From a virus (taxonomy: Duplodnaviria > Caudoviricetes): DNA of 64,000 nucleotides. Location of the stretch: IMG/VR virus record IMGVR_UViG_2721755344_000002, positions 32,001 through 96,000 of that record; one strand, 5' to 3'. The stretch's first letter is position 1, and every line of letters starts with the position of its first letter. Below are positions 1,055-56,594 of this stretch, piece by piece. A program made the translations under genes and the position numbers. Under the pieces are notes generated by a model, which did no database searches, was not told where the DNA came from, and saw only the letters and a program-made list of their open reading frames with translations.

Positions 1055-1306
1055 TTATTTTTCTTTCTGTTCGTCGCATAGCCTTATCATTCGGAATTTT
1101 GCCGTTCGCTGAACCTTTTCTTTCAAACACTTGATCCCTAAATCGCTACCAAATTTTCTAACTATGGAATTATCTACTTTTTCTTCAAGTGTAGATATTT
1201 CATGCCATTCTCCGTCTGGCCCTAAATATTCTAATTTCACAAGTTTGCCATAAGCCATTCGATATACCTTCCTATGTCCTAATTTCACAAGTTTGCCATA
1301 AGCCAT
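1055..1306 (-). CDS. small hypothetical protein (paralog of 22138-22308) with duplicated N-terminus and C-terminal RMIRL motif
   Basis: EYLGPDGEWH..STLE...VRKFG..LG shared with 22138-22308; ends KFRMIRLCDEQKEK. Confidence 0.7.
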   Translation of the reverse strand: MAYGKLVKLGHRKVYRMAYGKLVKLEYLGPDGEWHEISTLEEKVDNSIVRKFGSDLGIKCLKEKVQRTAKFRMIRLCDEQKEK

Positions 1307-1308
1307 TC
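1231..1308. repeat. 30-bp direct repeat, period 48
   Basis: ctaatttcacaagtttgccataagccattc at 1231-1260 and 1279-1308 (encodes MAYGKLVKL twice). Confidence 0.95.
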
Positions 1309-2402
1309 AATATTCCATCCTATATCTAAATTTCATTAAGGGAATAAAGTGTTTCCTCCTTGGGCAACTTTTTCAAAATAACGCTTCCTCCGCCCTTTAT
1401 AGGTAAGTCCTTATCCCAGGGTATCTTTCCTGTAAGAAATTCCAAAGAAATTACTTCTATTGTATCGGGCGGAACGAAAAGCTCATAATGATTGAATTCT
1501 TCATCTGAACAAACCAGCGTATATCCCTTGCGAGGATTACCGCCACAATTTAAACATTCGTAAGTTAATTTCTTCATATCTTCCTCCTTTATTTTAAATT
1601 TACTAAATTTAGCAGGTTTGAGCAACTTCAATAAGTCCTCCAGTTTACTTTAAACTAAACTTCATTACTTATACTACCTTTTTCCCAACTTTTTTAAACC
1701 TCTTTCCTATCTTCAGTTAAAGCCGGTTCAGGTTCCTTTCTAATTTCAATAGACTCCCAAAACTGAAAAAATTTATCAGTATCCCCATATTCACCTACTA
1801 TCTGCAGCAGTGCTGAAGATATTGTTAAATAATGTGAATTTGATATTTCCACTTCTTTTTCAGTCAAAGGCACATCAGAAAGTTCAATACCTTTTAAATA
1901 GTTTTGTAAATCGTAATCTTTAAACTTAATTTTTATTTTCATTACTTAGTGCCTCCTTTATGGTGGATAAACCGCCCTACTCCACCATTCATGACCACAT
2001 TTTTCGCATCTAACTTTATAATGATCAATATAAATTCCCTTGCGAAACTCTCCGGTAGGTTCTGCTTTTCTTTTCTTACATCTCCGGCACAACAATTCAA
2101 TTTTCATTTCAGCACAAATGCGAAGCGGCCAGGATTTGAACCTGCTTGGACGATTTCGGACAAACTTACCACCTCATAACTACAACTTCTACACTTCCCT
2201 CTCCATTGTCTAATTCGTAAGAACGCTCTTCAACAATGCCAAGACCATCATTATACTCTTCTTCATGTAAAATGGCTTTGGTTTCCTCAATATTATCCAA
2301 AGGTAAATAGCCAAACCCATCCTCCCCAGGCATCACAACTTCCAAGTTCTTATCCAAGCTTGACAATGCTTCTTCCAGCTCCCAAACTTTCATAACGCCC
2401 CC

Positions 2403-3362
2403 CTATACTAACTCCTGCATCTTCATAAAAGCCTTGAAAAACGATTGAATAAGTTTAGGCTTCCCTCCCTCCCAAAAAGAATGAGAGAAAATTTCTATCA
2501 CTTCGCTTGCCCTTAATCGCTCCCTTTCATTTTTTGGATTCTGATTCAGTAACACAGTTTGCATAAACCCTAATACCATTCTTCGCAAATCTTCTACCTC
2601 ATCTTCGTTAGCCTTCAATTTCTCCGATATGTAAAGCCAATTCTTTCCTTTGGTTAAGAGAAATTTACAAATTTCCATCATATCTTCTTTCGATCCTGAA
2701 GAATCGTCTAATGCCTTATTAGCTTCATCTTCATTTTCAGCATTACAAATTTTCTCAAGAAGTAATAATGCTTCCCTTGGACACCCGTCGGCAATGGTGT
2801 GAACTCTTTCTATTATCTTATCTGAAGCCAACACTATCCCCTTTTTCTCAATCACATCAAGAATAAAATTCATCATTTCGTGGTCTTTAAGACGGTGAAC
2901 CTGAAACCTTTCGCATCTTCCCTTTACAGTAGCCAAAAGTTTCTCTGGATTAGTCGTGGCAAGAATGATGTAAACATATGGCGGGGTATCTTCTAAAATT
3001 TTCAACAATGCTTCTGCTGCTACTCCTGTTATTTGGTGGGCCTCGTCAAAAAGAAAAACTTTAACTTTCCCCATTGTGGGAACATAATGCGAGAACTCAA
3101 TAACTTCACGAATTGAGTCTATTCCTCTTGTATTTGCAGTATTCATTTCGTACAATTCGGAACTGTGACAACCTAATTCCTTTGCAATTAAACGAGCAAT
3201 AGTTGTCTTACCACAACCTGTCGGACCATAAAGAAGATAGGAATGAGGTTTAGTAGGTCTTGATAGCATTTCTTTAAGAACTTTCACTGTGGCAACATTA
3301 CCCCTAACTTCGTCAAAAGTCTTAGGTCTTAACTCGAGGTGAAATCCGTTTTCTTTTTCCAT
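2403..3362 (-). CDS. dnaX: DNA polymerase III gamma/tau-like clamp-loader AAA+ ATPase
   Basis: RPKTFDEV, Walker A GPTGCGKTT, DEAH Walker B, LLKILED, ATT, ADGCPREAL motifs; short form without tau C-terminal domains. Confidence 0.9.
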   Translation of the reverse strand: MEKENGFHLELRPKTFDEVRGNVATVKVLKEMLSRPTKPHSYLLYGPTGCGKTTIARLIAKELGCHSSELYEMNTANTRGIDSIREVIEFSHYVPTMGKVKVFLFDEAHQITGVAAEALLKILEDTPPYVYIILATTNPEKLLATVKGRCERFQVHRLKDHEMMNFILDVIEKKGIVLASDKIIERVHTIADGCPREALLLLEKICNAENEDEANKALDDSSGSKEDMMEICKFLLTKGKNWLYISEKLKANEDEVEDLRRMVLGFMQTVLLNQNPKNERERLRASEVIEIFSHSFWEGGKPKLIQSFFKAFMKMQELV

Positions 3363-3364
3363 AA

Positions 3365-6330: not shown

Positions 6331-7020
6331 TTATATTAGATATTTCTGAGAGCATAAGCAATCTAAATTTGTCCAAATTCCCTCGTTCCTAAGTTTTGAT
6401 CCCTTGCGTTGTCCACTTGTGGTACACAAAGGTCTAAACGGTAACCATACAGCACTATCGTTTTCGCAAACAATAATTTGACCTTTTCGACTTTTGCACC
6501 AACTGGCTAATACTTCATAATCCAAATCCTTCCCATATGGATACAATTTCTGGCCGATATAGGGAGGGTCAATAAACCATGTAGCCTCTATATCGGGGGC
6601 TATGGAATAGTCGCCGAGCAGAATTTCCCATGTACGAATTTTAGCAACGTCATCGGCTACTTTATTCCAATTCAAATTTTGATTACCTTTGAAACCACCA
6701 ACAAAATTTTTAGGAGTTGGACTACCTTGATTCAACATAAAACCTAGAAAATCTCTGGCCTCCTGAGGTTTGATATCAGGTATAGGAGCCTTTGCATCAG
6801 GATGTGGAAGATTTCTAATAAAGTCTAGATCTGAATTTTGCAACCATTTCAGCATAGAAACAATCACAGGATTTTTTTCAATTAAAATAACATGCCTACC
6901 AACACTATGTCTTAAAGCATAATTTGCTGCGCCAGAAAACGGCTCAATAATTATATTATAAATAGGGGCAGGATACTTTTTCCATATTTTTGATTTTGAA
7001 CCATAATAACTGAATATCAT
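6331..7020 (-). CDS. Dam-like (D12 class) DNA adenine methyltransferase
   Basis: FSYYGSK, IEPFSGAA (motif I), FIDPPY (motif IV). Confidence 0.85.
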   Translation of the reverse strand: MIFSYYGSKSKIWKKYPAPIYNIIIEPFSGAANYALRHSVGRHVILIEKNPVIVSMLKWLQNSDLDFIRNLPHPDAKAPIPDIKPQEARDFLGFMLNQGSPTPKNFVGGFKGNQNLNWNKVADDVAKIRTWEILLGDYSIAPDIEATWFIDPPYIGQKLYPYGKDLDYEVLASWCKSRKGQIIVCENDSAVWLPFRPLCTTSGQRKGSKLRNEGIWTNLDCLCSQKYLI

Positions 7021-7298
7021 ACAATGGTACTCTTCAGCATCTTAATCTCTTCTTCTAGATCTTTAATCTTAGTTTCAGCTTCAGATAATGGATGTTTTGG
7101 ACACTGTCTAATATGATCATATAGCACTTTACGTTTAACAGCATTCGTTCCAGGTGGATATCTATGGCCGCAATATACACAATTTATATACATACCACTT
7201 TGTAAATCATCAACCCATTTTTCAAGTCTAACTACTTCATTTTCAAGTTCTATTACTCTATCTGTAAGCTCTAAGTGCTCTTTCTGAACTACTGACAT
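7017..7298 (-). CDS. coiled-coil / zinc-finger protein
   Basis: CVYCGH...HIRQCPKHP flanked by heptad-rich helices. Confidence 0.6.
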   Translation of the reverse strand: MSVVQKEHLELTDRVIELENEVVRLEKWVDDLQSGMYINCVYCGHRYPPGTNAVKRKVLYDHIRQCPKHPLSEAETKIKDLEEEIKMLKSTIV

Positions 7299-7477
7299 TT
7301 GCTTTCTCCTTTCAAGTACCCAGTACCTTCAAAACTCTTATTTTCGCAAAAATGCTACAGCTACATTTCACACAAAGATAAAATCCGCTAGGTGTTAATC
7401 TTGATCTATGCGGTCTTGTTCTACCGCCACATCTGATACATTTATATTTTGATAGTTCTGATCTATCACTACCACAA

Positions 7478-7852
7478 TCAGTTGTACACATCTTTCCCTC
7501 CATTTCCCTCTGCCCAATATCGTATCATGGTTGGAAAACTCTTGTGTGGTGTCGCCATCGGAAATAATCGTTCAATAATTTTTACTTTCTTCCCCGCCAT
7601 AAATGCCATACCAATATCAAAAAGACAACCCTCACTTTTTCCATCCCAAGCGATGTGAATTTCGTCGGCCCATAAAATACCTTTTTTATTATCGGTGCAA
7701 ATTCTAAAACCAACCGAATCATTCTGATCTGTGTCCCGTGATGGCCAGTAAACCCTATTTCCGGTAGCTTCAAGACTTTTCACATATTCTTCAAGGATTT
7801 CTTTCCAATGTACATCAATATTTCTAACTGGACAGATTAAAAAAATTTTCAT
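7478..7852 (-). CDS. nucleoside 2-deoxyribosyltransferase-like protein
   Basis: KIFLICPV, VYWPSRD, ADEIHI, SEGCLFDIGMAF..GKK pattern. Confidence 0.65.
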   Translation of the reverse strand: MKIFLICPVRNIDVHWKEILEEYVKSLEATGNRVYWPSRDTDQNDSVGFRICTDNKKGILWADEIHIAWDGKSEGCLFDIGMAFMAGKKVKIIERLFPMATPHKSFPTMIRYWAEGNGGKDVYN

Positions 7853-7912
7853 TCTACCTCTATTTTTGATTTTGAACCGTAGTAGCTAAAGATCATTATT
7901 TAAACCTTAAAA

Positions 7913-7982
7913 ATACCATACCTTACCATACCGAACCTAACCGAACCAAACCTTACCAAACCAAACCTCACCCTACCGAACT
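7913..7982 (-). repeat. GGT-NN pentamer array C (14 units), putative guide ncRNA
   Basis: minus strand: AGT TC GGT AG GGT GA GGT TT GGT TT GGT AA GGT TT GGT TC GGT TA GGT TC GGT AT GGT AA GGT AT GGT AT; intergenic. Confidence 0.9.
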
Positions 7983-7988
7983 TAAAAT

Positions 7989-8888
7989 TTACCACTCATA
8001 CCCATCTGAATATAATTTTAAATCGCTCTTTTCGTTTATAAGAACAAATCCATTCTTCCACTTAGAATGACTGCTTTTTACAGTACTCCCATTATAGGTC
8101 ATTGAATCTTGAGAAAACATCCCTCCGCAATCCGCTCCAATATATTTCCCACTTTGATCGTTTCCCGAACCGAAATGATGACCGTGAGCACAAATCACAT
8201 TTTTGTGTTCGATTGCTATTATATCTAAAGGAGTTTTGATTGTCTGCTTTGAATAATTGGATGGATGGCAAATAATCCAATTTTTATCTTCCGTCATAGC
8301 ATACTTAATATTTGATGGAAAAACTCTAACCCCAACCAAATCTATTGGAACTAATTGATAAAAAAGATTTTTTACATCAAAGATGCTTCCCAAAGCTCTG
8401 AAAATTCTTATATCATGGTTTCCCAAAATAAAATAGATTTTTTCAAACTGATTCAACAAACACTCGAACAATTCCCTCCCCGCTTGGAGTTCAGTATCCC
8501 AATCCACTTTTACTCCTGTATTCATCCAAATCTTAAACTGGTCTTGATCAAAGAAATCTCCAGCTATCATAAGAGTTTTAATTTTTCTAATATCTGAAAT
8601 TTCGCAGAGTAACTGAAGCCATTCTTTGCTAGTATGAGGTATATGAAAATCCGCAACAATTAAACAAGGAAGAGGAATATACATTGTATTATCTTTTATC
8701 CATTCCAACGACATTTTAATAACTGTGTCAATAGTTGGAATTTTAATAAGATTTCTCTTCTCAGCTCTCTTCAATAAATCATCTTTTGTAAACCCAGCCA
8801 CGGAACTAAATTTCAAAATTTTAGATTTATTAGAAGAGTTACTAATACTTTTTTTACATTCACTAAATTTTAGATTTTTCATTTTCAC
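7989..8888 (-). CDS. calcineurin-like metallophosphoesterase
   Basis: ADFHIPH, GDFFD, GNHD, HGHH metal-binding motifs. Confidence 0.85.
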   Translation of the reverse strand: MKMKNLKFSECKKSISNSSNKSKILKFSSVAGFTKDDLLKRAEKRNLIKIPTIDTVIKMSLEWIKDNTMYIPLPCLIVADFHIPHTSKEWLQLLCEISDIRKIKTLMIAGDFFDQDQFKIWMNTGVKVDWDTELQAGRELFECLLNQFEKIYFILGNHDIRIFRALGSIFDVKNLFYQLVPIDLVGVRVFPSNIKYAMTEDKNWIICHPSNYSKQTIKTPLDIIAIEHKNVICAHGHHFGSGNDQSGKYIGADCGGMFSQDSMTYNGSTVKSSHSKWKNGFVLINEKSDLKLYSDGYEW

Positions 8889-8898
8889 CTCACTAAGT

Positions 8899-8963
8899 TA
8901 TCCATACCATACCAAACCGAACCGCACCTGACCGAACCCTACCATACCCGACCAAACCACACA
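8899..8963 (-). repeat. GGT-NN pentamer array B (13 units), putative guide ncRNA
   Basis: minus strand: TGT GT GGT TT GGT CG GGT AT GGT AG GGT TC GGT CA GGT GC GGT TC GGT TT GGT AT GGT AT GGA TA. Confidence 0.9.
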
Positions 8964-8996
8964 ACAGCCTGATAAGAAGAATATTAAGAATAATTG

Positions 8997-9076
8997 CATC
9001 CTTACCATACCATACCGAACCGAACCCCGCCTAACCATACACTACCATACCAAACCGAACCAAACCTTACCTAACT
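8997..9076 (-). repeat. GGY-NN pentamer array A (16 units), putative guide ncRNA; begins inside the last codons of the RAMP-like gene
   Basis: minus strand: AGT TA GGT AA GGT TT GGT TC GGT TT GGT AT GGT AG TGT AT GGT TA GGC GG GGT TC GGT TC GGT AT GGT AT GGT AA GGA TG. Confidence 0.9.
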
Positions 9077-9609
9077 TCTTTTAATTCTACATCGAAACGT
9101 CCGAATCTAGGTCTCCAATCACCGATACCAATCTTATGCCCAGTAATTTCCATAACACTCTCAACTATTTGCTTTGGAATATCATCATCCACAATTATCG
9201 TAAATTCTGCTTTCCACCCCTTTTTGAAAAGGGGCCTATGAATAGCCACTCTTCCCCCAGTTCTTGGAGGTCTCCTCCCATGACTAATATGAATATCGTC
9301 CCATATTTTTTTGTTGGGAATAAATCGGATTTTATTTTCTTCAATTAAAACACCAGCTATAAAATCTCCTGTCCATTTAGTAGCACCTTTCTTAACCAAT
9401 TTAGATGCTCCAAATTTGATAGCCGCAAGAAAATGTTCGTCTGGGATATAACAACCATCCTCGTCTTTATACACAACTTCATCAACTTTACTGGTCGCAT
9501 CTGTGGCTAATGATTTAGCTCTTTTTACACCTTTTGATTCTTCTTCCGAAATGGTATACTGGTTCTGAAGATAATCGACAATCCCTATACATTTTACTTT
9601 AATTTTCAT
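9067..9609 (-). CDS. stand-alone Cas7/RAMP-like RNA-binding protein (about 180 aa)
   Basis: N-terminal beta strand IKVKCIG, 'CYIPDEHFLAAIK' (RAMP YIP..slKG-like), RP..WKAEFTI, C-terminal glycine-rich loop GIGDWRPRFGRFDV; GGAGG RBS before ATG 9609. Confidence 0.7.
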   Translation of the reverse strand: MKIKVKCIGIVDYLQNQYTISEEESKGVKRAKSLATDATSKVDEVVYKDEDGCYIPDEHFLAAIKFGASKLVKKGATKWTGDFIAGVLIEENKIRFIPNKKIWDDIHISHGRRPPRTGGRVAIHRPLFKKGWKAEFTIIVDDDIPKQIVESVMEITGHKIGIGDWRPRFGRFDVELKEVR

Positions 9610-9634
9610 AGTATCCTCCATTTAATTTAATATT

Positions 9635-9664
9635 ATTATAACACAATTAAAAAGGTTTTGTCAA
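9635..9664 (-). promoter_or_regulatory. sigma70-type promoter for the RAMP-like gene and arrays
   Basis: TTGACA-18-TATAAT with TGn extended -10. Confidence 0.8.
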
Positions 9665-9665
9665 C

Positions 9666-10982
9666 TCAGCCCCACTCCTTTTGAACATTCTGAGTTCTTT
9701 TGGTTGAAAGTTCCGAATATCCCAAATCAACCCCAAACCCGCGCCTGCCTAACTTTTCCGCAACTCTGATTGTAGTACCGGATCCAGCAAACGGGTCTAA
9801 TACCGAACCTGCTATCCAACCTGCATTACATCCGCAGTCCGTTAGCTCGACTAACTTCTTCATATACTGACCCATATTCTTTTCTTTAAATTCTCTCGGG
9901 TCTCGAGGGTCGGGTCTAGGCTTATTAACTTTCGGATCATAATCACCTGAATATTCTGAATCATAAATTTTCTCTCTCGGCTTCCCACATTTCTTACAAA
10001 TAAACTCTGGGACACCAGCCAAAATCATAGGTCGAACAAGATCCTCGGGAAATATTGCGAAATGAGCCTCTCTAACTCCTTTTGTAGGAATCTTCCACAC
10101 ACATCGTTTATTACGACCTAGAGGGTTAAGATTATTAAAAATCCTTTGTCTTACTTTAACACCTCCGCTCACGCCTTCGGAATCATAATCTTTCCATCCC
10201 CTTCCCCCCTCATCATTTCCAGCTCTTGCATCATTGAGCGTAACAGAAGACATTGGCTCAAATTGCTGGTCAAAGAAATAGTCTTTCTTCTTAGCAAAGA
10301 AAAATACAGGCTCCCAGTCGACCGTAAACCTATCTTTTACGCTGTGAGGTAAGGTATTCGGTTTATGCCAAACAATTTTATTCCTAAGTATCCATCCTCT
10401 GTTTAACATCTCGATCACAAATCTTTCCGGAATACCTAACAAAGACTTTGGGGCAAACTTTTGAGAAGGAGGAGCTCCAAATCCGCCTATACCAACAGGA
10501 CGAGAATCAATTCCTCGAGGACCTTTTCTTTGAGTACCAGGTTTCTTTCCCTGATCACCTCCACTCCCTCCGTAACTATCTGATAAATTCACAAAAATTA
10601 TACCATCGTCTCTCAATACTCTTTTCACTTCATCAAATATATCGCACAAGTGCCTGATAAAGTCATCATAATGAGACTCGCATCCTAACTGCCCTTTCCA
10701 TGCGCCACACTTAGTACAATTTGAACGAGAACCATATTCAATTTTTTGTGCTTTAGGTGGCGGTCGATCTCCATACATTGAGTTTTGTGTTCCACCAGCT
10801 CTCATTCGATAATCAAAAGCCAGCTCTTCTGTAACCCAATCGTGGGGGCAATTCGGGGACCCGTCCCAAATCACATCTGGAATATCATACTTTCTGAGAG
10901 CGTAATACGGCGGGGAAGTGATAACGCAATTTATTGACTTATCCGCAAGCGGAATATGCCTTGCATCACAGTTAAATATCAT
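9666..10982 (-). CDS. N4/N6 DNA methyltransferase (beta class) with Cys-rich insertions
   Basis: TSPPY, GWILRNKIVWHKPN, HFAIFPE, LDPFAGSGT; CxxC inserts. Confidence 0.9.
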   Translation of the reverse strand: MIFNCDARHIPLADKSINCVITSPPYYALRKYDIPDVIWDGSPNCPHDWVTEELAFDYRMRAGGTQNSMYGDRPPPKAQKIEYGSRSNCTKCGAWKGQLGCESHYDDFIRHLCDIFDEVKRVLRDDGIIFVNLSDSYGGSGGDQGKKPGTQRKGPRGIDSRPVGIGGFGAPPSQKFAPKSLLGIPERFVIEMLNRGWILRNKIVWHKPNTLPHSVKDRFTVDWEPVFFFAKKKDYFFDQQFEPMSSVTLNDARAGNDEGGRGWKDYDSEGVSGGVKVRQRIFNNLNPLGRNKRCVWKIPTKGVREAHFAIFPEDLVRPMILAGVPEFICKKCGKPREKIYDSEYSGDYDPKVNKPRPDPRDPREFKEKNMGQYMKKLVELTDCGCNAGWIAGSVLDPFAGSGTTIRVAEKLGRRGFGVDLGYSELSTKRTQNVQKEWG

Positions 10983-11006
10983 CCTACGCTTTCTAAATTT
11001 GGTCTT

Positions 11007-11216
11007 TTATTCCACCACTACATTGATTGCTTGTGGACCTTTGGGACCTTCTTGAATCTCGAAATCTACCTTGTCGCCTTCGTTCAGGGATTTAAAACCC
11101 TCCCTCTGAATAGCTGAGAAGTGAACGAATACATCGCTACCATCTTCTCTGGAAATAAATCCGAAACCCTTCTTCTCGTTAAACCACTTAACACTACCTT
11201 TCGTAAATATCACCTC
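11007..11216 (-). CDS. csp: cold-shock domain protein (start codon uncertain)
   Basis: [35 protein letters not shown]. Confidence 0.92.
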
Positions 11217-11229
11217 CTTTCTATTTTTA

Positions 11230-11322
11230 TGGGGACAGGCGGGGGACATAACGGACTCAAACCGAGTTCTTGGTATAACTTCACCCCCGAGGAACCTGAA
11301 CCTGCTTTCGCCACTGTCCCCA
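11230..11322 (-). ncRNA. tRNA-like structured element upstream of csp
   Basis: 9-bp terminal stem TGGGGACAG/CTGTCCCCA, GTGGCGAAA D-like start, CGG-TTTGAGT-CCG T-like arm. Confidence 0.4.
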
Positions 11323-11384
11323 CTAATATTTCACCTTCTATCATCGTCACTAAAATTCACTAGAACTCCCTGAATACTTTCTCT

Positions 11385-11981
11385 TCATACTTCGTCCCCC
11401 CAAACTTCCCACTTTTCATCTCTTTTCCTAGCAAAAAGTTCAATTCTTTTTCCTATAGGATATAAATCTTCAATCATCTTCCTAAACTTAGGAGGTTTCT
11501 CGGAATGTTTACCTCTATGTATTGAGACAACACTTGGATATAATTTCCGACGGTCTGGCAGGCAACTTCCTTTAGTAGCTACCAATAAAAACTCGTGACG
11601 CAACGAGTTGTAGTGAGCGAAATTGTGAGTCATCTTATCCCAAACGAACGAACTTTTGTATTTGAACCCCCAAGCATTAATTACCTTAAAAGCATCTTCC
11701 AGTAATGGAGAAGTTACCCAAAGAAATAAAACAGCATTATCTTCTGTTCGTATCTTTAAATTACAAATTTCTTCAAGACTCATCGTTCCATAATGATGCT
11801 CTGCTGCTCCATATCCATCTACTAGTTTATCACCATATTGCCAAGGCGGGTCAGCATAAACCACACGAAATTTATCGCTGGAAAGAGATTTATTTGTTTT
11901 TTCTCTTATATCATCTTGAAAAAATGTATCTTGATTAGGATTCTTAATCCTGCGCTTAGGAAATTTTTTTGATAGTTGCAT
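11385..11981 (-). CDS. MT-A70 family adenine methyltransferase
   Basis: YADPPW, LFLWVT, WGFKY, HEFLLV, HSEKP, IELFAR, WGDE. Confidence 0.92.
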   Translation of the reverse strand: MQLSKKFPKRRIKNPNQDTFFQDDIREKTNKSLSSDKFRVVYADPPWQYGDKLVDGYGAAEHHYGTMSLEEICNLKIRTEDNAVLFLWVTSPLLEDAFKVINAWGFKYKSSFVWDKMTHNFAHYNSLRHEFLLVATKGSCLPDRRKLYPSVVSIHRGKHSEKPPKFRKMIEDLYPIGKRIELFARKRDEKWEVWGDEV

Positions 11982-11982
11982 T

Positions 11983-12795
11983 CTACTCCGAGTTTAATCC
12001 CAAATCGAATGATTCTTTATACCAATCGGGCACACTTGACCTTATCTCTTCTATATTATGTGGTTTTCCCACATTAAACCCTCTTCCCAAAAGCCACCAA
12101 ACCATTTCGGTACTATTAAAATATACCCTACCCGTAGATTTTATTCCACCTTCTGGCTCAATATTACCGGTATCCAATTCCCAATCAGGAATTTTTACTA
12201 TAACTGAAAGTTCGTCTGCAAACTGGGATGTACCTTCCTTACTTTTCAATATACAAAATACTCCTGGTTCTACAACTAGATCATATCCTTTTAATTCAAA
12301 AAATTTGTCATGGAAATCATCTTTATTTTTAACCAATACTCTCACATATAACTTAGAATGTTTCGCCAGATAACCAAGAGTTTTATAAAAATTGTTGCTG
12401 TCGGTAAACAAAAATTCCTTTCGATTATAGGAATTTCCTTTGCGAGCATCAGCCCTTCTCGACTTATTCTTATCATCACTAAAATTTTTTAAATATCTTT
12501 CGTTCGTATTTTCTAATAAAACCTGCGGAGAAATAGAAGTTCTAATTTCTTCCCCATCTTTTCCTCGTCTTACTATAACTACCTCATCGTTTGTGATAGA
12601 CTCAATCGTATAATACCCCGAGTTATCCATGTAAGTTTCGCCTACCCGCAAACCTAAAATCTTAATCTCTGCTAATTTGTATTCTGCAAAGCTGTCAAAA
12701 TCGTCCCTGTCTAGTGCAATATCTTTATCTTCTTCATCATTTAAATTTATTTCTTTTACCTCTTTCACATCTTCTTTTACCTCAACATTTTCCAT
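11983..12795 (-). CDS. hypothetical protein
   Basis: 270-aa ORF with GGAGG RBS and acidic N-terminus. Confidence 0.7.
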   Translation of the reverse strand: MENVEVKEDVKEVKEINLNDEEDKDIALDRDDFDSFAEYKLAEIKILGLRVGETYMDNSGYYTIESITNDEVVIVRRGKDGEEIRTSISPQVLLENTNERYLKNFSDDKNKSRRADARKGNSYNRKEFLFTDSNNFYKTLGYLAKHSKLYVRVLVKNKDDFHDKFFELKGYDLVVEPGVFCILKSKEGTSQFADELSVIVKIPDWELDTGNIEPEGGIKSTGRVYFNSTEMVWWLLGRGFNVGKPHNIEEIRSSVPDWYKESFDLGLNSE

Positions 12796-13205
12796 TTTTT
12801 CTCTCCTCCCGTATCATTATTTTCATAACATCATTCTACATAGATATCTTCTCCACTCTCTATCGCTTCTTTAGCTTGAATCCAACCTTCAACTTGGCAA
12901 CTGTTCTCTTTATAGTTTAGTTTCTTCTCTTCGATCTTCTCATAGAAAATAGCAACTCTTAACGCAGATAATAAATTTTCTCGCAATATTTTCATCATTT
13001 AAAAACTATTGCCTCTTAAACCTAGCCGGTGTGTGTTGGTCATTCCAAATAGTCTGCCCAAAAGCGTAACGTATGGCCTGAGATATAATAACTCTCATAA
13101 ACCAGACTCCCCCTAATGAAGCAATACAAAGAAGAACATACAAAATAGCATCCATTGAACTCTTTTTAGTTTCCATCTCATACTCCTTTCATTTAATTTA
13201 TAATT

Positions 13206-13234
13206 ATCATATCACAAAAAAAGGAGATTGTCAA
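13206..13234 (-). promoter_or_regulatory. sigma70-type promoter
   Basis: TTGACA-17-TATGAT. Confidence 0.75.
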
Positions 13235-13427
13235 GCTATATTTTATAAATAATTCGTATGTAATATCAAATACTTAGCTTGTTGAAAATCAACTTTTGCC
13301 GTAAGGAATTGATTCATTACACCGCCCGCAAATTGGACAGTAACAAGTCCATCCAGCTAAAACTGCACCGCACCTTGAACAATAATCATATCTTGGAATC
13401 ATAGTCAGGGTCTCACTTTCCCTCCTT

Positions 13428-14480
13428 TCACTTAACCATACAAACCACATCTTCCCAATCTATTCTAGGAGCGCCTTTCTTTTCCTGTAATCTTCGGAAA
13501 AAGCTTTTTCTCTCTTTGGTAAATTCAGCACCGTCAAATGCAGTTTGAGGATCATTATTTACTAACATTGCATAATGCCAACATACTATTTTAAAACCAA
13601 CAGACTCACATAAAGAAGCCCACGTATCAGAAAAATTAATTCTAGTCTTATTCCTTATATAATCCTTTGTAACCCAAATTGCATGCCCATCAGGTTTTAA
13701 CAAATTATAGCATTCTTGAATTATCTCACGAGAAGCCAACCAAAAGTCATCGCCAGCTATGCTACCCAAATTATCTTTATTATCTTTATTGTACCCTTCC
13801 CACGTTTTATTTTTACGATCTATTTTTCTTTGCTCTCTATCTGCTTGCTTAGATGAGCAAATTTCCGATGCTCCGTATGGAGGACTCGACATTATCAAAT
13901 CTGCCTTCATATTAGAAAGATTTCCTGGAGTACAACCGTAGGCATTTTGATAACGTAATTGACCGCATCCTATTCTACCATGCCCCGCTTTTGTTGCTAA
14001 TTCTTGACGTCTTGCATGGTTTTCAGGTTTATCACTCCCAGACAAACTATTTGCATAAGGAGGACTCGACATTACCAAATCAGCCTTATCAATCAGCTCC
14101 TTTAACTTTCTTGAATCCCCTTGAATAATTTTTGCTGTTCCTCTATATAGATGGAAAGGACGGCTTTCGCAAAGTTCCTTATCCAGTCCTTCCCACTTTT
14201 TAATATTTTTTCTGCCTAATTCTACAAATTTTTTCTCGATCTCTATTCCTATCCAATGTGCCCCTCTCGTCATAGCACCAAAACCTCCCAATGCTACTCC
14301 TCCAAACGGGTCGAGAACAATGTTGCCCTTCTTCAACCATTCATTATCAACAGCATGATTGTATATCTTCTCAACTAAGGCACAGCTAAACTTTGCTGGA
14401 TGACAAAAAGCATCACTAACTATGGAATCTTTCCATCCGGTTTCGTAACAATTCCTCCATACATCTGTCTCAAATATCAA
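13428..14480 (-). CDS. amino-DNA methyltransferase (paralog of 50978-51904)
   Basis: HPAKF, LDPFGG, GIEIE, two SSPPY motifs. Confidence 0.85.
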   Translation of the reverse strand: MIFETDVWRNCYETGWKDSIVSDAFCHPAKFSCALVEKIYNHAVDNEWLKKGNIVLDPFGGVALGGFGAMTRGAHWIGIEIEKKFVELGRKNIKKWEGLDKELCESRPFHLYRGTAKIIQGDSRKLKELIDKADLVMSSPPYANSLSGSDKPENHARRQELATKAGHGRIGCGQLRYQNAYGCTPGNLSNMKADLIMSSPPYGASEICSSKQADREQRKIDRKNKTWEGYNKDNKDNLGSIAGDDFWLASREIIQECYNLLKPDGHAIWVTKDYIRNKTRINFSDTWASLCESVGFKIVCWHYAMLVNNDPQTAFDGAEFTKERKSFFRRLQEKKGAPRIDWEDVVCMVK

Positions 14481-14623
14481 TATTCTTCACCTTCGCCTTC
14501 TTCTAATGAGTTATAACACTCTTCACAAAGAATGTCGTAATCGTAATCTAATCCCCTAACCCTAGCTTCAAAATCTTCTTCTGGAATTTCTTCCCCGCAT
14601 CTTTCACACAGCATAAATACCTC

Positions 14624-15418: not shown

Positions 15419-15718
15419 TTTTAAACCTACTGGTTTCCTTTACGGAAATCCCATTTCCTATCTAAAAGACATGCAATACCTTCACTTCCTTTTATAGCCG
15501 TCTTCCAGGTTTCAGTTTTGAAGATATTTTCGTAATTCTTACTACCGATCGCCCTTTTGAAAGCATCTCCTGCAGTATACATCGCTTCCATCTGGACCAC
15601 TTGAGGTCCGAGTTCTGGCATGTTCATGTTGCGAGCGTGACGAATAAGTATCTCAACTCGGGCCAAATCTTCCAGTTGACTTTTGCTAAACTCTTTCATT
15701 TAATCCTCCTTATTTCGT

Positions 15719-18118: not shown

Positions 18119-18273
18119 ACGTCCTCCTAACTTTTTTCTTCATAGCTTTTTTATCAACAAAGTGAGAACACTTTTTAGGAACATAACATAAAGTGCTTCC
18201 ATCAATCGGGCACCAAATTTCCTTTACCCTGCTATTTAGATAAGTACTAATAATGGGATTCCAATAACACTCT

Positions 18274-20073: not shown

Positions 20074-20144
20074 AGCCCGTAGGAGGAATCGAACCCCCTT
20101 CTGATGGGTACAAACCATCAGCTCTGCCATTGAGCTACACGGGC
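20074..20144 (-). tRNA. trnT: tRNA-Thr(UGU)
   Basis: GCCCGTG/TACGGGC acceptor, GCTC-AATGGCA-GAGC D arm, GATGG-TTTGTAC-CCATC anticodon arm, GGGGG-TTCGATT-CCTCC T arm; CCA not encoded. Confidence 0.9.
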
Positions 20145-43983: not shown

Positions 43984-44790
43984 TTAATCTTTTGAGGAAG
44001 TTTCATTAAAATTATCCTCTAAAATGCGCATCAACAATTCCTCTGCTCTATTGTAATCAGGCTTGTCTTTCAGCGTACTATGAATATATGCTTGTTCAGC
44101 CAATCCAAATAGCTTCTCAGCTTCTCTTTTCACCTGTTCCAGAGTCCACTCCCCATTTTTTATAGAAATGAGTTGTGGAGCATCCTCACGCTCTACATAC
44201 AAAACACCCTCAGTAAGAAACTCTATCCCCATCTTTAGAAGACGAATCAAATGTGCTCCATTTTTACAATCAAACCCGAACTTCTCTACAAGTTTTTTTC
44301 TCTTCTCCCCCATATAACCTTCAAATTTAAAATGTGTCATTCTTTTAAACTGTCCATACGCATATCCGCTAAAAGAATGATAGGCATGCTTGCTCACAAA
44401 TATATCACGGTTATCAATAAGCAACTGCCCGTATTTATTCCTACTTAAATAATACTTCTCTGGTAGCCACAACATCATCATAACATTGGGGTTACATTTA
44501 AGAAGAAGCCCAACAAACTTCCTTAACTCGTATAGAATAATATCCCACTCCTGAACCTGTCTTTCATAAACTTCCCTTTTCCCAAATCCTAAATAATGAT
44601 TCTTAGGCGCAATAAAGATACCCATAACATCTTTGTCATCCGTGCTGTTTGGCTTATTAGAAGGAAGATAAGTACCGTGCGCTATTGACCCTCTATATCC
44701 AGATAAAACTATATTCAACGGATTGTTGTTTCCATCCGTAAATAATTCTTTAGTCTTCTCGTCTGACAAACCTTTTAAGTTCATTATCAT
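43984..44790 (-). CDS. pol-beta superfamily nucleotidyltransferase (RlaP/YcgL-like)
   Basis: GSIAHG...DDKDVMGIF, ELRKF..L..CNPN, K.GAHLIRLL. Confidence 0.88.
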   Translation of the reverse strand: MIMNLKGLSDEKTKELFTDGNNNPLNIVLSGYRGSIAHGTYLPSNKPNSTDDKDVMGIFIAPKNHYLGFGKREVYERQVQEWDIILYELRKFVGLLLKCNPNVMMMLWLPEKYYLSRNKYGQLLIDNRDIFVSKHAYHSFSGYAYGQFKRMTHFKFEGYMGEKRKKLVEKFGFDCKNGAHLIRLLKMGIEFLTEGVLYVEREDAPQLISIKNGEWTLEQVKREAEKLFGLAEQAYIHSTLKDKPDYNRAEELLMRILEDNFNETSSKD

Positions 44791-45180
44791 AACCTAAACA
44801 AACGATACGATTTCTTCTCTAAACAACCTCTTCCATCGGGATCATTTTTCTTATCCAAAGCCGTAGCAAGTTCTGACATTAGAATATGAGCATTGTTATT
44901 GTGCTTCAAATACTCCTGAAAAATCTCTCCACGATCTCCGGTTGAAATACCAGAAAATAAAGCAAAAAACAATTCCCACATCCCGTTGATTTCTTTACTC
45001 AAAGCGAATAAAAGCTCGTGCTTCTCTTCCATTACTTTGCCTCATAATGAGTATGATACAAATAATACTGGCACGTCTTATTCTCTTGATGATATGAATA
45101 GGGATAAGGAGCTTTAGGTAGAACTGTTAAATTACTGCATCCAACTATCCCCGCTAAAACCAATCCAATCAATAGCCATC

Positions 45181-48725: not shown

Positions 48726-49142
48726 GTCATTTATAAACTACTCCACTAAATTCTTTACCAGGTAGAAACTTTATCAACTTTTAATTGCCTCAGCATTAAC
48801 ATTACATCTCCGTCTTTATCGGGCTCGAGCCATATTTTTTCGCCCTCCACATTATCCAAGTTCTTATATCTTTTAATAGCCATAAAAGAAATTTCTCCAA
48901 TTTCTCCATCCTTAAAAATTTCTCCAATTTCCCCATTACCGTTGACCTTAACCCCTCTATGAAAGTGAAAGTATCCAATTATCCTTCCGTCCACTTCAAT
49001 ATAAACATGTTCCACCTCCGCAACTTTCCGATCTAGGTTTATCCCAAATCTAACATAAGGTCTGCCTATACTAAATCCTTTCTTTTTTATAAAAGGTTTA
49101 ACAATAGGAATTTCTGGATAACCTTCCAGTCTGATTCTGCGT

Positions 49143-49643
49143 TTAGGCTTTGTCAATTCTTATTAACCTCTTCTTCTTGTAGTCTCTTTTAAGAATTGGT
49201 TTGGGTCCATCCAAAACAATATATTTACCAATCACATCTCGAAAATCTTTCAGTGATTCTTTAATTTCTTTTTTGAGCTCGCCAAAAGTCCATTTCTTAC
49301 CTGATGCTCTACTGGAGGATCCATAATGAGCATAATCCCCAGCATGCCCATAGTCCCACCCATAAAAAAACCAGCCCGATGGCAAATAAACATCATCTCC
49401 ACCTCCAGCAAAAGTCAATCCTCCGTGACAATGAAAAGGATTAAAAATATCGTCCTCATAACTTTTATTAGCTAAGGAATGATCTAAAGGAATACCTATA
49501 TAACAACACCAAGCCATTGGTCCCCGCATTATTATTGAACGAAATGAACCAAAAGCTTCGATGTCGGTAACGTCATAGACAATCGTCCCCATTTCTAACT
49601 TACCCAAATCCCAAAAATCTTCACTCACGTTAAATCTTTTCAT
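49143..49643 (-). CDS. conserved phage protein (CxY...HGGLT...GWDYxH), C-terminal RLIRI
   Basis: WCCYIGIP..H, CHGGLTF, GWDYGHAGD. Confidence 0.75.
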   Translation of the reverse strand: MKRFNVSEDFWDLGKLEMGTIVYDVTDIEAFGSFRSIIMRGPMAWCCYIGIPLDHSLANKSYEDDIFNPFHCHGGLTFAGGGDDVYLPSGWFFYGWDYGHAGDYAHYGSSSRASGKKWTFGELKKEIKESLKDFRDVIGKYIVLDGPKPILKRDYKKKRLIRIDKA

Positions 49644-50977: not shown

Positions 50978-51904
50978 CTACTCCTTTCTCATACAAATAA
51001 TATCTTCCCAATCTATCTTTGGAGCCCCTTGCTTCTCTACCAATCTTCTAAAAAAGCTCTTTCGCTGTTTAACCTTATCCTCCCCAATCCATATAGATTG
51101 AGCTACTCCTACCATCGTAGCTAGATGCCTGCATACTAAAATAAAACCAATATCTTCACACAAAGCAAGCCACGTATCGCTAAATGGTACTCGTTGCCCT
51201 TTTCTAACATAATCTTTAGTATTCCAAATAGCATACCCTCCAGGCTTGAGCAGTTCGTAACACTGCTCTAATATAACCCTTGCACCACTCCAAAAAGCAT
51301 CGCCTTTCTCGTTGCCTAAATTTTTACTTGAAGCTTCCGCATATTGAAAGTTTGTAACCTTTTTGCCTGCAAGCTTATCTCTACCCACAATTCCGTAATC
51401 TCCGTGCCCGCTTGCAGACGACTCATATGGAGGGCTACTTATGCATATATCTATTTTCCCGCTCACATATTTTTTCAACTCCATAGAATTACCAGCCATA
51501 AGAACAGCTAAGTTTTTCTTCCACTCCAACATCCCTTCCCACAATAAAATATTTTGCTTACCTATATTTGCAAAATTCTCCTCGAGCTCAATCCCTACCC
51601 AAAACACATCCTGAATCATCGCATCCAAACCTCCAAGAGCAATACCTCCAAACGGATCTATTACCCTTGAATTTCTTGCTAACCACCCGTTTTCTATTGC
51701 GTGAGCGTAGATCCTCTGTATCACTCCCCTAGCAAATTTAGCAGGGTGATCGTCAACAATAAGACCCCTCCAATTTTGATTAAAACATTCTTCCCATTTA
51801 TCGGGATAACTGCTCTCTACCAAAACGTCTCCCTTTGTTGCTAATCCAAAGCAAATGAGTTCCGTCGGATCGTCTCGTTCGACTCCTGAAAGTCGTGATA
51901 TCAA
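50978..51904 (-). CDS. amino-DNA methyltransferase (paralog of 13428-14480)
   Basis: HPAKF, IDPFGG, GIELE, SSPPY, KSFFRRL.EK.GAP.IDWED. Confidence 0.85.
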   Translation of the reverse strand: MISRLSGVERDDPTELICFGLATKGDVLVESSYPDKWEECFNQNWRGLIVDDHPAKFARGVIQRIYAHAIENGWLARNSRVIDPFGGIALGGLDAMIQDVFWVGIELEENFANIGKQNILLWEGMLEWKKNLAVLMAGNSMELKKYVSGKIDICISSPPYESSASGHGDYGIVGRDKLAGKKVTNFQYAEASSKNLGNEKGDAFWSGARVILEQCYELLKPGGYAIWNTKDYVRKGQRVPFSDTWLALCEDIGFILVCRHLATMVGVAQSIWIGEDKVKQRKSFFRRLVEKQGAPKIDWEDIICMRKE

Positions 51905-52582: not shown

Positions 52583-52583
52583 G

Positions 52584-53783: not shown

Positions 53784-53996
53784 TCATAACGAGCTCATTC
53801 TGCTGTATGCTCTCATATTCCAAGATTCGACCGCTGCGGATTTGGGATACCACCTCATAGTCATTATTCCGCATCTTCGATTAGAGCATCGAACTTGATA
53901 CAAAGTATCTTTTTTTCCTGTTACCAACTTCGGATGAGATACATTTAGTTTAGCAACCGATCCGCAAAATGGACAGAACATTAAATTAAGCTTCAT
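53784..53996 (-). CDS. Lar family restriction-alleviation-like Zn finger
   Basis: L..CPFCG...VRC...CG...A..SWNMR. Confidence 0.7.
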   Translation of the reverse strand: MKLNLMFCPFCGSVAKLNVSHPKLVTGKKDTLYQVRCSNRRCGIMTMRWYPKSAAVESWNMRAYSRMSSL

Positions 53997-54441
53997 TACT
54001 TACCTCTAACCTAAATAAACGTTTATGTTGTTCTCCTCTTTTTAGAGGAATATAAGGATTTAATTCTTTCATCCACTTTCTAGGCATCCTTCGCACAGTA
54101 GCCAATATTTTTTTCTCGGCATCTTTTTGAACAAAGATTTTCCATTGGGGTTTATAAGCAAACGAAGACATAGACTTACGTTCCTCAAAATAAATCGTCT
54201 CTGTTAAATTATAAGTTTTTATTAAAGTTCGGTGTGATTTCCTCCACCAAAAAGTTGTATGCACTAAAAGAGGTTCTTTCAACTCTTTGATGTATTTCTC
54301 TACATCTATCCATCCTCCCTTAACTACAAAAGGATCTCCTTTTGGCGTATAACAAAAGGCAATAGTAAAAGGACTCATAGGTTGATTTGAACCCCACAAA
54401 TTAGGAGTAGGTTGATAGGCAAAAACAATCTCTTTAAGCAT
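53986..54441 (-). CDS. hypothetical protein with C-terminal RLFRL
   Basis: 151-aa ORF; ends HKRLFRLEVSNEA. Confidence 0.65.
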   Translation of the reverse strand: MLKEIVFAYQPTPNLWGSNQPMSPFTIAFCYTPKGDPFVVKGGWIDVEKYIKELKEPLLVHTTFWWRKSHRTLIKTYNLTETIYFEERKSMSSFAYKPQWKIFVQKDAEKKILATVRRMPRKWMKELNPYIPLKRGEQHKRLFRLEVSNEA

Positions 54442-54813
54442 CCAAAGTCCTCATATTCTTAATCCATTTAGTAGGAATACAAAGAACTCCACTTACTTCG
54501 AGTTCATCTCTTCCCCCATCTTTTTGATAAAAGTCCCTACATAATACAATTTGATCTTCCGTCTGAGATAAAAGTCTCCCCACACTCCTTACCGTACTAT
54601 CATCATACGAACAAGCATCCAACCATTCAACCTCGACAACAAGTGTCTTTTCCATAAATTAATACTGCAGGTGAGAGAAAGGAAAATTTATGCGCTTCTA
54701 ATTGTAAGTTATCACTTTCTCCCGGAAAGACTTTTGCTTTACGCACTATAAAGCTGGTAAAGTAGTGTTTGCCAGCATCACACTTCCTTCTTTTACCCGC
54801 ATATCCTTTTATT

Positions 54814-55389
54814 TTATTCAGAATCATCTTTCTTTTCAATTAACGGAGGCTCTAAACCTCGGTCTCTTCTCTTTTGAAGAATCAAAGCATCAATATCTTG
54901 AACAACATCTCCACCACCCATATTAAAAAATTGGTTAATATTTGTAGGCTGTAAACCGCCTGCTTTCATATTACCATACATCTTGATTACTCTATCAATG
55001 GCTTTATCTCTTTGCTCAATATTTGCAGACTCCATATCAAAATCTATTTTAGAAAGAGCTTTGATAAACAAATATCCCAGCATCTTCTCACTCTCAGAAA
55101 ACCTCTCGGATATTATTCTGCGAATTTCCTCGTGAACCAATTTGTTAGTCCGAAGAATGTGATAAACTCTCTTGACATTTATTCTTAAATCTCTAGCGAT
55201 AATGCCAGGTGGATATCCTCTGGAAGCGTATTCAGCTATCATCTGGTATCTCAAACTCAATACACCTTTTCGACCAAGTTTAATTCTATTACTATGATCC
55301 TGCTCCGCATTTTCAATATCTTGATGTTTATCTTCGTCTATTTCAGCTTCAGCTTCGTCTATTTCAGCTTCGATTACGTCTTCTTCCAT
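54814..55389 (-). CDS. HTH protein, possible terminase small subunit
   Basis: acidic N-terminus, HTH-like IARDLRINVKRVYHIL, helical middle, TNINQFFN tail. Confidence 0.45.
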   Translation of the reverse strand: MEEDVIEAEIDEAEAEIDEDKHQDIENAEQDHSNRIKLGRKGVLSLRYQMIAEYASRGYPPGIIARDLRINVKRVYHILRTNKLVHEEIRRIISERFSESEKMLGYLFIKALSKIDFDMESANIEQRDKAIDRVIKMYGNMKAGGLQPTNINQFFNMGGGDVVQDIDALILQKRRDRGLEPPLIEKKDDSE

Positions 55390-56594
55390 TACATCTCCTT
55401 CGCTTTCTCCAAAATTTTTCTAATATTAAATAAATTATTCTTCCAAACATCAAAATCTAGTCCGTCTCCGAGTTGGGTGAGCAGCCTCCATTCGCTTATG
55501 TTAAGCTCTTTCTCTATCTCTTCTACTATTTGCTCTAATTGTTGAACGGTTAAAAATTTACTATACCTAGAAATCAAATCATCACAAAAGCTTGGCATAC
55601 CTGATCTACGGCCGAAAGAATATCTAATAGTTGACAATAACATAACCCACAAGTCTAATTTACCAACAAGACAAGTCTTGTCAGCCCCGGTCTGAATCGC
55701 TATTCTTCTAGCCTGACTTTTTGATTTAATTGGCAATTCTAATCTTTCAGCCTCCCTCCAATATTTTATAAATATCTTGTCCCAACTCCCATATTTTCTC
55801 GTTTAGTATCTCTACCTCTTTTTCCAACTCTCTCACCTTTTTCAGTAATACTCTAATATGCCCTCCACTTTCATCTGTTTCGGTTTCGACAGTCATCTTT
55901 AATCTCCATCCGAAATTCTAATCTTTCTTAGATATTTACGAAACCTGCCCTCTCCGAAAAAAATTGTGGGAGATGTTACTTCTCGATATGCAGGAGCACC
56001 TAAATTATATAAGAATTGAGGATCTGATGTAGCACAAGCTTCACAATAAAAAATAAATCCATTTCTGGTTCCAAATTTAGCAGAAACTTTAAGTCGGTTG
56101 GCCCCCATAAAAATATAATTATTGCATTTCCTACAATGAGACCTACTAGACTTAGCCTTTTCCCATACAAGATTATTCATCTGTTCCCCCCGCTCGGTCT
56201 TCCCTGTTTCTAAAAGTTATTCTTCATCCTTTAAAAATCCCATATCTCGTTTAATGTCAATAAAAGTTGCCATATCTCTCATCGAATGGATATCAAGTTG
56301 CCCTTTCTTATAATAGCACGTGCAAACTCCCACAGGGTCTAAAGAATCTAATCTCAAACCATATATTTCAGCGCACTTAACAAATTTCTTATCAAACTTT
56401 GTCATTATTCCTACAAAATGTCCGCAGTCCTTGCACAAACCAAATTCGGCAAAATCGGAGACTTCTCCAGCAGACCTGAAACTAGTTTCCAAATTCTCTG
56501 CTTCTGCAATTATTCTACTGGCTTCCTTATCCTTTTCTTCTCCAAGAAAACTACGCACTTGAACCTCCATTCTTATATAACACCTTCGCAAAAT

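Follow-up and report, generated by a model that had tools for sequence, protein, structure and literature searches.

Why should a phage end so many small proteins in nearly the same five residues? The question is raised by a 64,000-nucleotide stretch of DNA (the window), which comprises bases 32001-96000 of a single 114,307-bp record of an uncultured phage (IMGVR_UViG_2721755344_000002) and in which the peptide R-M-I-R-L, or a close variant, recurs near the C-termini of the encoded proteins. Coordinates below are those of the window unless marked genome. The initial annotation had listed 12 strong cases, two weaker C-terminal cases (20557 and 55899) and one N-terminal case (48755), and all of them are present at these genes on the minus strand. 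A survey of the 219 called minus-strand proteins in the whole record adds copies in the proteins at 755-1039 (weak) and at genome 638-979, genome 1014-1217 and genome 106681-107043, and at the N-terminus of DNA polymerase A. The terminal tag in this phage is confirmed and is stronger than first noted, and we put at roughly 85% the probability that it serves, at the peptide level, to dock its carriers on a common partner. The copies in the window are the following.

770-784, minus strand: weak RKIQL, 4 residues before the C-terminus of the 94-residue protein 755-1039.
1079-1093, minus strand: RMIRL, 7 residues before the C-terminus of the 83-residue protein 1055-1306, a paralogue of 22138-22308.
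17732-17746, minus strand: RMLRL, 11 residues before the C-terminus of the 140-residue protein 17696-18118.
20599-20613, minus strand: weak RMIQI, 13 residues before the C-terminus of the 102-residue protein 20557-20865.
21000-21014, minus strand: RMIRI, 5 residues before the C-terminus of the 97-residue protein 20982-21275.
21619-21633, minus strand: RMLRL, 5 residues before the C-terminus of the 86-residue protein 21601-21861.
22038-22052, minus strand: RMIRL, 1 residue before the C-terminus of the 39-residue Cys/His-rich protein 22032-22151.
22168-22182, minus strand: RMIRL, 9 residues before the C-terminus of the 56-residue protein 22138-22308.
36287-36301, minus strand: RMIRL, 3 residues before the C-terminus of the 59-residue protein 36275-36454.
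36914-36928, minus strand: RLIRL, at the extreme C-terminus of the 222-residue protein 36911-37579, which resembles AEP primase-polymerases.
42552-42566, minus strand: RMIRL, 2 residues before the C-terminus of the 195-residue protein 42543-43130.
44790-44804, minus strand: RLFRL, at the extreme C-terminus of the 81-residue protein 44787-45032.
49127-49141, minus strand: N-terminal RRIRL, residues 6-10, after K-P-K, of the open reading frame (ORF) 48755-49156, whose TTG start overlaps the end of 49143-49643.
49155-49169, minus strand: RLIRI, 3 residues before the C-terminus of the 166-residue protein 49143-49643 (phrog_2164 domain).
54007-54021, minus strand: RLFRL, 6 residues before the C-terminus of the 151-residue protein 53986-54441.
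55914-55928, minus strand: variant RKIRI, 4 residues before the C-terminus of the 93-residue protein 55899-56180.

The motif is strongly enriched over composition background. Fifteen matches to the strict pattern R[ML][ILF]R[LI] are found in the 219 called proteins, all of them 0-11 residues from the C-terminus, whereas 2000 within-protein residue shuffles give a mean of 0.39 matches in total (maximum 4) and 0.04 at the C-terminus (maximum 2). The same pattern has no match in the three plus-strand frames and two matches in off-frame minus-strand ORFs. Relaxing it to R[MLKR][ILFV][RQ][LIV] gives 20 matches, 18 of which lie within 13 residues of the C-terminus and two within 26 residues of the N-terminus (DNA polymerase A and ORF 48755-49156), with none in the interior of a protein. 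Lys, Pro or aromatic residues usually precede the core, and acidic or polar residues follow it. The tag is thus carried by about 9% of the called proteins, nearly all of them without known function. The carriers range from 39 to 222 residues, several contain Cys/His clusters, and the claim that they are mostly unrelated is borne out by all-against-all blastp, which finds only two paralogue pairs (1055/22138 and genome 638/1014). Pfam and PHROGs assign no function to any carrier except 36911, and the protein at 49143 matches phrog_2164, a family of unknown function. Atlas gives weak leads to a small beta-barrel or KOW-like fold for carrier 42543-43130.

Codon usage and spacing bear on whether selection acts on the peptide or on the DNA. 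As the initial annotation had noted, the codons vary synonymously, with AGG, AGA, CGT, CGC and CGA at the first Arg and TTA, CTA, CTT, TTG, ATT and ATA at the last position. Both codon families are in use for Arg (AGR and CGN) and for Leu (TTR and CTN). Over 15 copies, second codon positions carry the most information (1.8-2.1 bits) and third positions little. Between the motif and the start codon that follows lie 13 to 149 nucleotides, and between the motif and the stop of its own gene 0 to 13 codons. This codon variation and variable spacing, together with conservation in orthologues with diverged linkers, the presence of unrelated bearers in relatives and a tail predicted to be disordered (described below), argue that the tag is selected as a peptide. 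The tag is selected at the peptide level, has been appended to unrelated protein bodies, and is kept across the phage clade.

The opposite view is that the signal resides in the nucleic acid or its translation, as a ribosome-binding or coupling element, a gene-shuffling recombination site or a nascent-peptide stalling sequence, with the peptide as a by-product. It draws on the overlap or direct contact of 9 of 17 carriers with the start codon that follows, on the excess of AGG among tag Arg codons, and on the shared architecture of two gene junctions discussed below (clamp/polymerase and 49143/48755). We nevertheless regard it as exceedingly improbable given the low third-position information, the switching of Arg and Leu between codon families, the scatter of distances to the next start and to the stop, the N-terminal copies, and the fact that the peptide persists, in other codons, in orthologues and in unrelated proteins of relatives. 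The stalling and ribosome-binding-site readings were rejected because the spacing to the stop and to the next start is variable, and codon and spacing data together largely exclude the DNA-level and translation-level readings. A purely peptide-level account is at odds with one observation: AGG is over-used in tag Arg codons (14 of 30, compared with 25% genome-wide; p = 0.008). Arg codons in several overlapping genes probably double as the ribosome-binding site of the next gene, a minor contribution at the DNA level.

Conservation in related phages, on which the initial annotation had made its proposal depend, is found in several contigs. All four close orthologues of the 49143 protein (44-48% identity) keep [KR]-R-[ML]-I-R-[IVC] and a short acidic end, even though the linker before the tail differs in length and sequence; four distant homologues end before the tail. 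A contig syntenic with window 44.7-49.6 kb (L002) carries three tails, and a Lar-type restriction-alleviation protein bears one of these. Two contigs from another assembly, L017 and L019, encode proteins that are 66% (RlaP), 56% (TerL) and about 40% (AEP-like) identical to those of this phage, and in them R-M-I-R-[LV] followed by an Asp/Glu run is found on several small proteins that have no blast match in this genome. One copy in L017 is at the extreme N-terminus. A second C-terminal tail, R-R-[IV]-E-[IVM]-[GS]-[EN]-W plus acidic residues, co-exists with R-M-I-R-L in these two contigs and is carried by 3-4 proteins, including the AEP-like one. Among the tails of L023, L024 and L025, R-[MWL]-L-R-[PFL] occurs six times in 4 kb, and R-M-I-R-L and R-L-I-R-L are found on AEP-like homologues. 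Related contigs have 2-6 tails each, on small proteins, compared with a shuffle expectation of 0.02-0.04 per contig (L002, L017, L019), and control contigs of other phages have no tails. In the distant contig L026, which has a 32% identical AEP-like homologue, this protein and five others of about 30 end in a hydrophobic-aromatic tail of the F-V-A-F-[FI]-[IL]-I type. This tail sits at the extreme C-terminus and looks closer to a classical clamp-binding end.

The distribution of tails in the 49143 family, in these contigs and in the controls is the reason for reading the tail as a portable module, which is kept across a clade of related uncultured soil, sediment and groundwater phages and which drifts in sequence or is replaced between lineages. 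The different shared tail in L026 suggests that the tail co-varies with a lineage-specific partner. A degenerate tail may be noted beside these contigs: genome 107701-107991 (minus strand, outside the window) encodes a 96-residue homologue of a tagged L002 protein, with a four-fold T-K-P-V-E repeat and the tail K-R-R-I-S-C followed by acidic residues.

Many small tagged genes with different bodies are clustered at window 20557-22308 and at 8.7-9.8 kb of L017, and such clusters resemble an adaptor set. They are in keeping with a protease-adaptor tether or degron, in which the tail binds an AAA+ protease, for instance at the N-domain of ClpX, and the carriers are either degraded on schedule or deliver targets of their own, and so is the combination of a varied body, a flexible linker and a common basic-aliphatic tail, which is the architecture of SspB-type adaptors. 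We consider this explanation very unlikely, however. We found no AAA+ protease gene in the record, up to 13 residues follow the tag and some copies are N-terminal, a polymerase and a primase-like enzyme would be odd clients, and the complete change of tail in L026 is unexpected if the partner is a conserved host machine. A tRNA-Thr(TGT) gene at 20074-20144 adjoins the cluster of five tagged small genes in the window, and a tRNA-Pro(TGG) gene is located at genome 113515-113589.

How might such a short peptide dock? Positions 1, 3 and 5 (Arg, aliphatic, aliphatic) are constant across all variants, and positions 2 and 4 are more variable. This is the periodicity of an extended strand that presents one face, and we infer from it that the tag probably docks as an extended strand. 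A conceivable partner is RecA, since the aliphatic-aliphatic-R-L-x-acidic pattern resembles the N-terminal strand of E. coli RecA (S-I-M-R-L-G-E in the PDB RecA sequence), and the carriers might then mimic the polymerisation strand and cap or ride host RecA filaments, as BRC repeats do on RAD51. This is highly improbable. The likeness spans only 4-5 residues and leaves the invariant first Arg without a RecA counterpart; position 2, which would be the first pocket filler, is K, R or S in many variants here and in relatives, so that hydrophobic residues do not recur at i and i+3; and the phage's own RecA-like protein differs in sequence at this place.

Of the carriers, the protein encoded at 36911-37579 resembles AEP primase-polymerases. 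Its homologue alignment shows an invariant D62-C-D64, a candidate for the catalytic acidic D-x-D motif of AEP enzymes, among other conserved blocks, and Atlas leads are to AEP or Prim-Pol families. An AF2 model built from 12 sequences has a pLDDT of 67 (80-90 in the core), and residues 207-222, which include the tag, are predicted as coil with pLDDT <50 and no secondary structure; this is the one carrier that was modelled. When the model was used in a wide VIA-align search, ranks 1-16 were all primase-polymerases, with Z from 6.9 to 4.5, whereas unrelated folds scored 4.1 or less. The top matches were 2iru (Z 6.9; root-mean-square deviation 4.8 over 152 aligned residues), 2fao (6.8), 1zt2 (6.8) and 3h20 (6.8), and the families represented are the LigD polymerase domain, archaeal PriS, RepB', Prim-PolC, CAPP, the S-2L PrimPol, human PrimPol and PRIM1. 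Foldseek gave no significant match with the same model (E-values >0.06). With these middling Z-scores as moderate support, the protein likely has an AEP fold.

A second replication enzyme is brought in by the whole-proteome position-weight scan, in which the N-terminus of DNA polymerase A ranks directly after the C-terminal tails. The genes concerned, together with the candidate hub that adjoins the polymerase and its putative loader, are the following.

Genome 102301-104856, minus strand, outside the window: DNA polymerase A, with a conserved N-terminal extension that holds the tag-like peptide.
Genome 104795-105958, minus strand, outside the window: beta sliding clamp, immediately upstream of the polymerase gene and overlapping its start.
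2403-3362, minus strand: clamp-loader gamma/tau-like AAA+ subunit, which provides context for the candidate hub.

Residues 17-30 of the polymerase read S-K-P-K-R-K-I-R-L-R-E-N-D. The start of the protein is a GTG codon preceded by AGGAG, and the gene call in the protein collection uses the same start. The closest relative of the polymerase (L014, 76% identical) keeps R-K-I-R-L, and three other orthologues keep K-P, the Lys, Ile/Val and the acidic flank, with K-V-C-L, K-I-H-L or K-I-R-K at the place of the tag. Nearly the same peptide, in other codons, begins ORF 48755-49156, at a junction of identical architecture: at genome 104740-104900 (clamp/polymerase) and at window 49080-49200 (49143/48755), both on the minus strand, G-C-C-T-A-A closes the upstream gene, and the downstream frame, which overlaps it, reads K-P-K-R-[KR]-I-R-L in synonymous codons that differ between the two. 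A PhageMetallopep-type protein encoded at genome 101740-102249 (minus strand, outside the window), just downstream of the polymerase gene, ends R-R-R-R-I-R-P plus an acidic tail. The relative L015 conserves this end, which may be a related version of the tag that finishes in Pro.

The clamp gene matches phrog_947 (DNA polymerase processivity factor). The protein has 287 relatives in a library of 1.8 billion proteins, and a profile made from 63 of these gives E = 6e-33 against bacterial beta clamps in the PDB. Its AF2 model (pLDDT 93.5) shows three clamp domains, an extra C-terminal helix (352-372) and a disordered Asp/Ser-rich end, and in this model the extra helix and Asp/Ser-rich tail adjoin the place where clients bind. 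Clamps are a textbook example of a hub that is read by short terminal motifs. The location of all 20 relaxed matches at protein ends, together with the disordered tail of the modelled carrier, corresponds to the placement of clamp motifs, which are short linear motifs in disordered termini. The termini of the identified replication proteins of this phage contain no canonical Q-L-x-L-F motif, which implies that a terminal clamp motif of the polymerase, if used, must be non-canonical, and the only terminal extension of the polymerase is the one with the tag-like peptide.

These observations lead us to the following scheme. The tag would be a short linear docking motif with the core R-[M/L/K/R]-[I/L/F]-R-[L/I], placed on a flexible protein end (the C-terminus in 18 cases and the N-terminus in two), and all carriers, which probably include a primase-like enzyme and the DNA polymerase, would use it to bind a single shared hub, probably in the form of an extended strand. 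The most likely hub would be the divergent beta sliding clamp that the phage itself encodes and that its clamp loader would load; as a clamp-binding motif of non-canonical type, the tag would then hold the polymerase, the primase-like protein and small accessory proteins on phage DNA as it replicates. A replisome hub is favoured over a capsid tag or a C-terminal degron because of the AEP-like carrier, the polymerase variant and the use of the tag at either end. The clamp or another replisome component is a candidate drawn from gene context, and we assign it as partner only tentatively, at somewhat less than even odds. With respect to the initial annotation, which had offered a capsid or ejection signal, a degron or adaptor-binding site and a hub-binding motif as possible roles, a peptide-level tag rather than a DNA signal is upheld, and among the three roles the evidence leans to a hub-binding motif.

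Several observations weigh against the assignment to the clamp. Three of five close orthologues do not keep the Arg at position 4 of the N-terminal polymerase element and show C, H or a shifted K instead; this element may be something different from the tag. The contigs around the clamp and polymerase of the relatives L014, L015 and L016 have no C-terminal tails, although the matching region of the present phage itself holds only one. Most carriers are tiny and have no recognisable DNA-related domain. Moreover, the tag does not fit the canonical clamp consensus Q-phi-x-[LM]-[FL] (or Q-phi-x-[LM]-x-[FL]), and canonical clamp pockets have positively charged surroundings (PMC11139829), whereas the tag contains two Arg residues.

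The tag might instead address a different hub of phage or host, such as a scaffold of the replication compartment, the gp32-like SSB, a helicase, RNA polymerase or a chaperone. All the peptide-level evidence applies equally to such a partner, and the tie to the clamp is not a physical one. Phages that share proteins of only 40-66% identity have an identical R-M-I-R-L core, which would fit a slowly evolving partner, and the second flavour of tail in L017 and L019 hints at more than one docking site. Pfam and PHROGs annotation of about 70 proteins yields no candidate for a hub of this kind, however, and the polymerase and primase-like carriers point to replication. We consider such a hub unlikely, with a chance that is far from negligible.

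Two carriers lie downstream of the portal gene, in line with another explanation, namely that the tail is a capsid-loading or ejection tag that attaches to the major capsid protein on its inner face, so that the carriers are packaged and injected with the DNA. In chemistry and position the tag matches a known capsid-docking hook, R-I-I-K (PMC5644958), and co-injection would suit an anti-restriction function such as that of the tagged Lar-type protein in L002. This reading is difficult to reconcile with the N-terminal copies, the primase-like carrier and the variant on DNA polymerase. In addition, the large virion-type proteins next to the portal do not have the tag, the tail of 36911 has no helix before the motif (AF2, low confidence), and Pfam and PHROGs recognise neither a scaffolding protein nor a major capsid protein in the record. 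We judge a capsid tag to be quite unlikely.

The rest of the genome was annotated as well. The record has a G+C content of 37%, a strong purine skew and essentially all genes on the minus strand; it has no terminal repeat in its 114,307 bp and may be incomplete. Besides the clamp loader and polymerase, the latter of family A and fused to a UDG-like domain, genes for replication and repair encode SbcC/SbcD, a RecA-like protein, a gp32-like SSB, a 5'-3' exonuclease and a type IB topoisomerase. The last of these is a DNA topoisomerase of eukaryotic type, and its catalytic core lies at genome 6729-7697 (minus strand, outside the window; Pfam E = 4e-28), close to the portal gene. Genes for modification and repair of DNA and nucleotides specify at least seven DNA methyltransferases, an OGG-type glycosylase, ribonucleotide reductase, dCMP deaminase, and Thg1-like and RlaP-like nucleotidyltransferases. 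The methyltransferase genes are unusually dense at 6331-19836 and 50978-51904 (both minus strand), where N6/N4 (two apparently paralogous pairs), MT-A70 and C5 types are found. Also encoded are a sigma-like factor, two lytic transglycosylases, an OmpA-domain protein, the portal and the large terminase. The last is an 856-residue subunit at 27568-30138 (minus strand; phrog_2, phrog_5989, phrog_24361) that is interrupted by a LAGLIDADG-domain intein, and L019 encodes an intein-free homologue of its residues 418-855 with 56% identity. Finally, genome 96567-97262 (minus strand, outside the window) encodes a 231-residue protein in which K-K-R-L-I-R-P occurs internally, together with a low-complexity stretch rich in Gly, Ser, Tyr and Arg; its acidic end, D-D-E-W-I-P, recalls D-D-D-I-P-F, the tip of bacterial SSB.

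Close relatives were not found among INPHARED phages, either by megablast or by tblastn with the AEP-like carrier 36911-37579. The clamp has only five distant matches there (22-24% identity), and the clamp loader is only about 30% identical to that of the nearest deposited phages. In IMG/VR, neither carrier 36911 nor the clamp retrieved any match, scans with the clamp loader and portal found only short or tag-free contigs, and a first metagenome scan with the clamp gave no match. Near-identical DNA is present in soil, sediment and groundwater metagenomes from four studies, and no RNA data set is among the sequencing runs listed for it. A thermophilic host had been suggested by the Lys/Glu-rich composition (charged-minus-polar bias 12.4), and the idea was dropped in view of these sources.

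A broader and more speculative proposal, which in full we regard as rather unlikely, is that exchangeable, lineage-specific address tags recruit a large and fast-changing set of clients to one co-evolving, phage-encoded hub. The three tags would be R-M-I-R-L with its acidic flank, R-R-I-E-V-G-E-W, and the hydrophobic F-V-A-F-F-I-I end of the distant lineage; the clients would be the polymerase, the AEP-like primase and dozens of small accessory or host-takeover proteins; and the part of the hub would fall to a re-specified sliding clamp or to a replication-compartment scaffold not yet described. If true, the arrangement would parallel the PCNA/PIP-box client network in a phage, and its private code would keep the phage hub free of host proteins. 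Should the partner be the phage clamp, it would follow that the client code of a clamp can be rewritten, as Arg-rich instead of Q-L-x-L-F, and this would matter for motif-based prediction of clients and for the separation of phage and host replisomes. Identification of the partner would in any case place about twenty proteins per genome, now of unknown function, in one functional context in a single step. The short linear motifs by which proteins are wired to hubs are well mapped in eukaryotes and their viruses and barely so in phages.

We found no description of such a tag in the literature, where a search with the literal peptide returned only noise. The new elements here are the cross-lineage conservation on unrelated bodies, the use at both termini, the tie to a primase-like enzyme and the polymerase, and a named candidate hub. 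Several known systems are nevertheless comparable. The XB tail of SspB (L-R-V-V-K) binds the N-domain of ClpX, where it adds a strand to a small hub domain, and it resembles the tag in its general chemistry and in the succession of variable body, flexible linker and short basic-aliphatic tether at the C-terminus. The motif itself differs, however, and one adaptor per cell contrasts with the twenty-member family described here, in a phage in which we saw no Clp gene. In phage T4, gp43, gp33 and gp55 carry C-terminal clamp-binding tails. Bacterial beta-clamp-binding motifs (Q-L-[SD]-L-F, Q-L-x-L-x-[LF]) are linear motifs of 5-6 residues in disordered termini or loops, and they can be located in C-terminal tails, N-termini or loops, with acidic flanks (PMC11139829). 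The tag resembles them in this placement, in its acidic flanks and in the many unrelated clients that would share one ring-shaped hub, and the phage encodes both a beta clamp and a clamp loader, with the clamp adjoining a polymerase that has a motif-like N-terminal peptide. Unlike these motifs, the tag has no Gln and two conserved Arg residues and is carried mostly by tiny proteins of unknown function, whose role as clients is putative. In the "helix-and-hook" of the 80alpha scaffolding protein and SaPI1 CpmB, the C-terminal K-R-I-I-K-N follows an amphipathic helix of about 11 residues, and a cleft in the capsid protein receives its R, I and I (PMC5644958). The hook likewise is a near-C-terminal Arg-aliphatic-aliphatic-basic motif on otherwise different proteins with one partner, but it is present on two scaffolds, whereas the tag has about 20 carriers, including replication enzymes, and N-terminal copies. 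As far as sequence can tell, the tag would work like a clamp-binding, PIP-type, XB-type or scaffold-hook motif while belonging to none of these classes.

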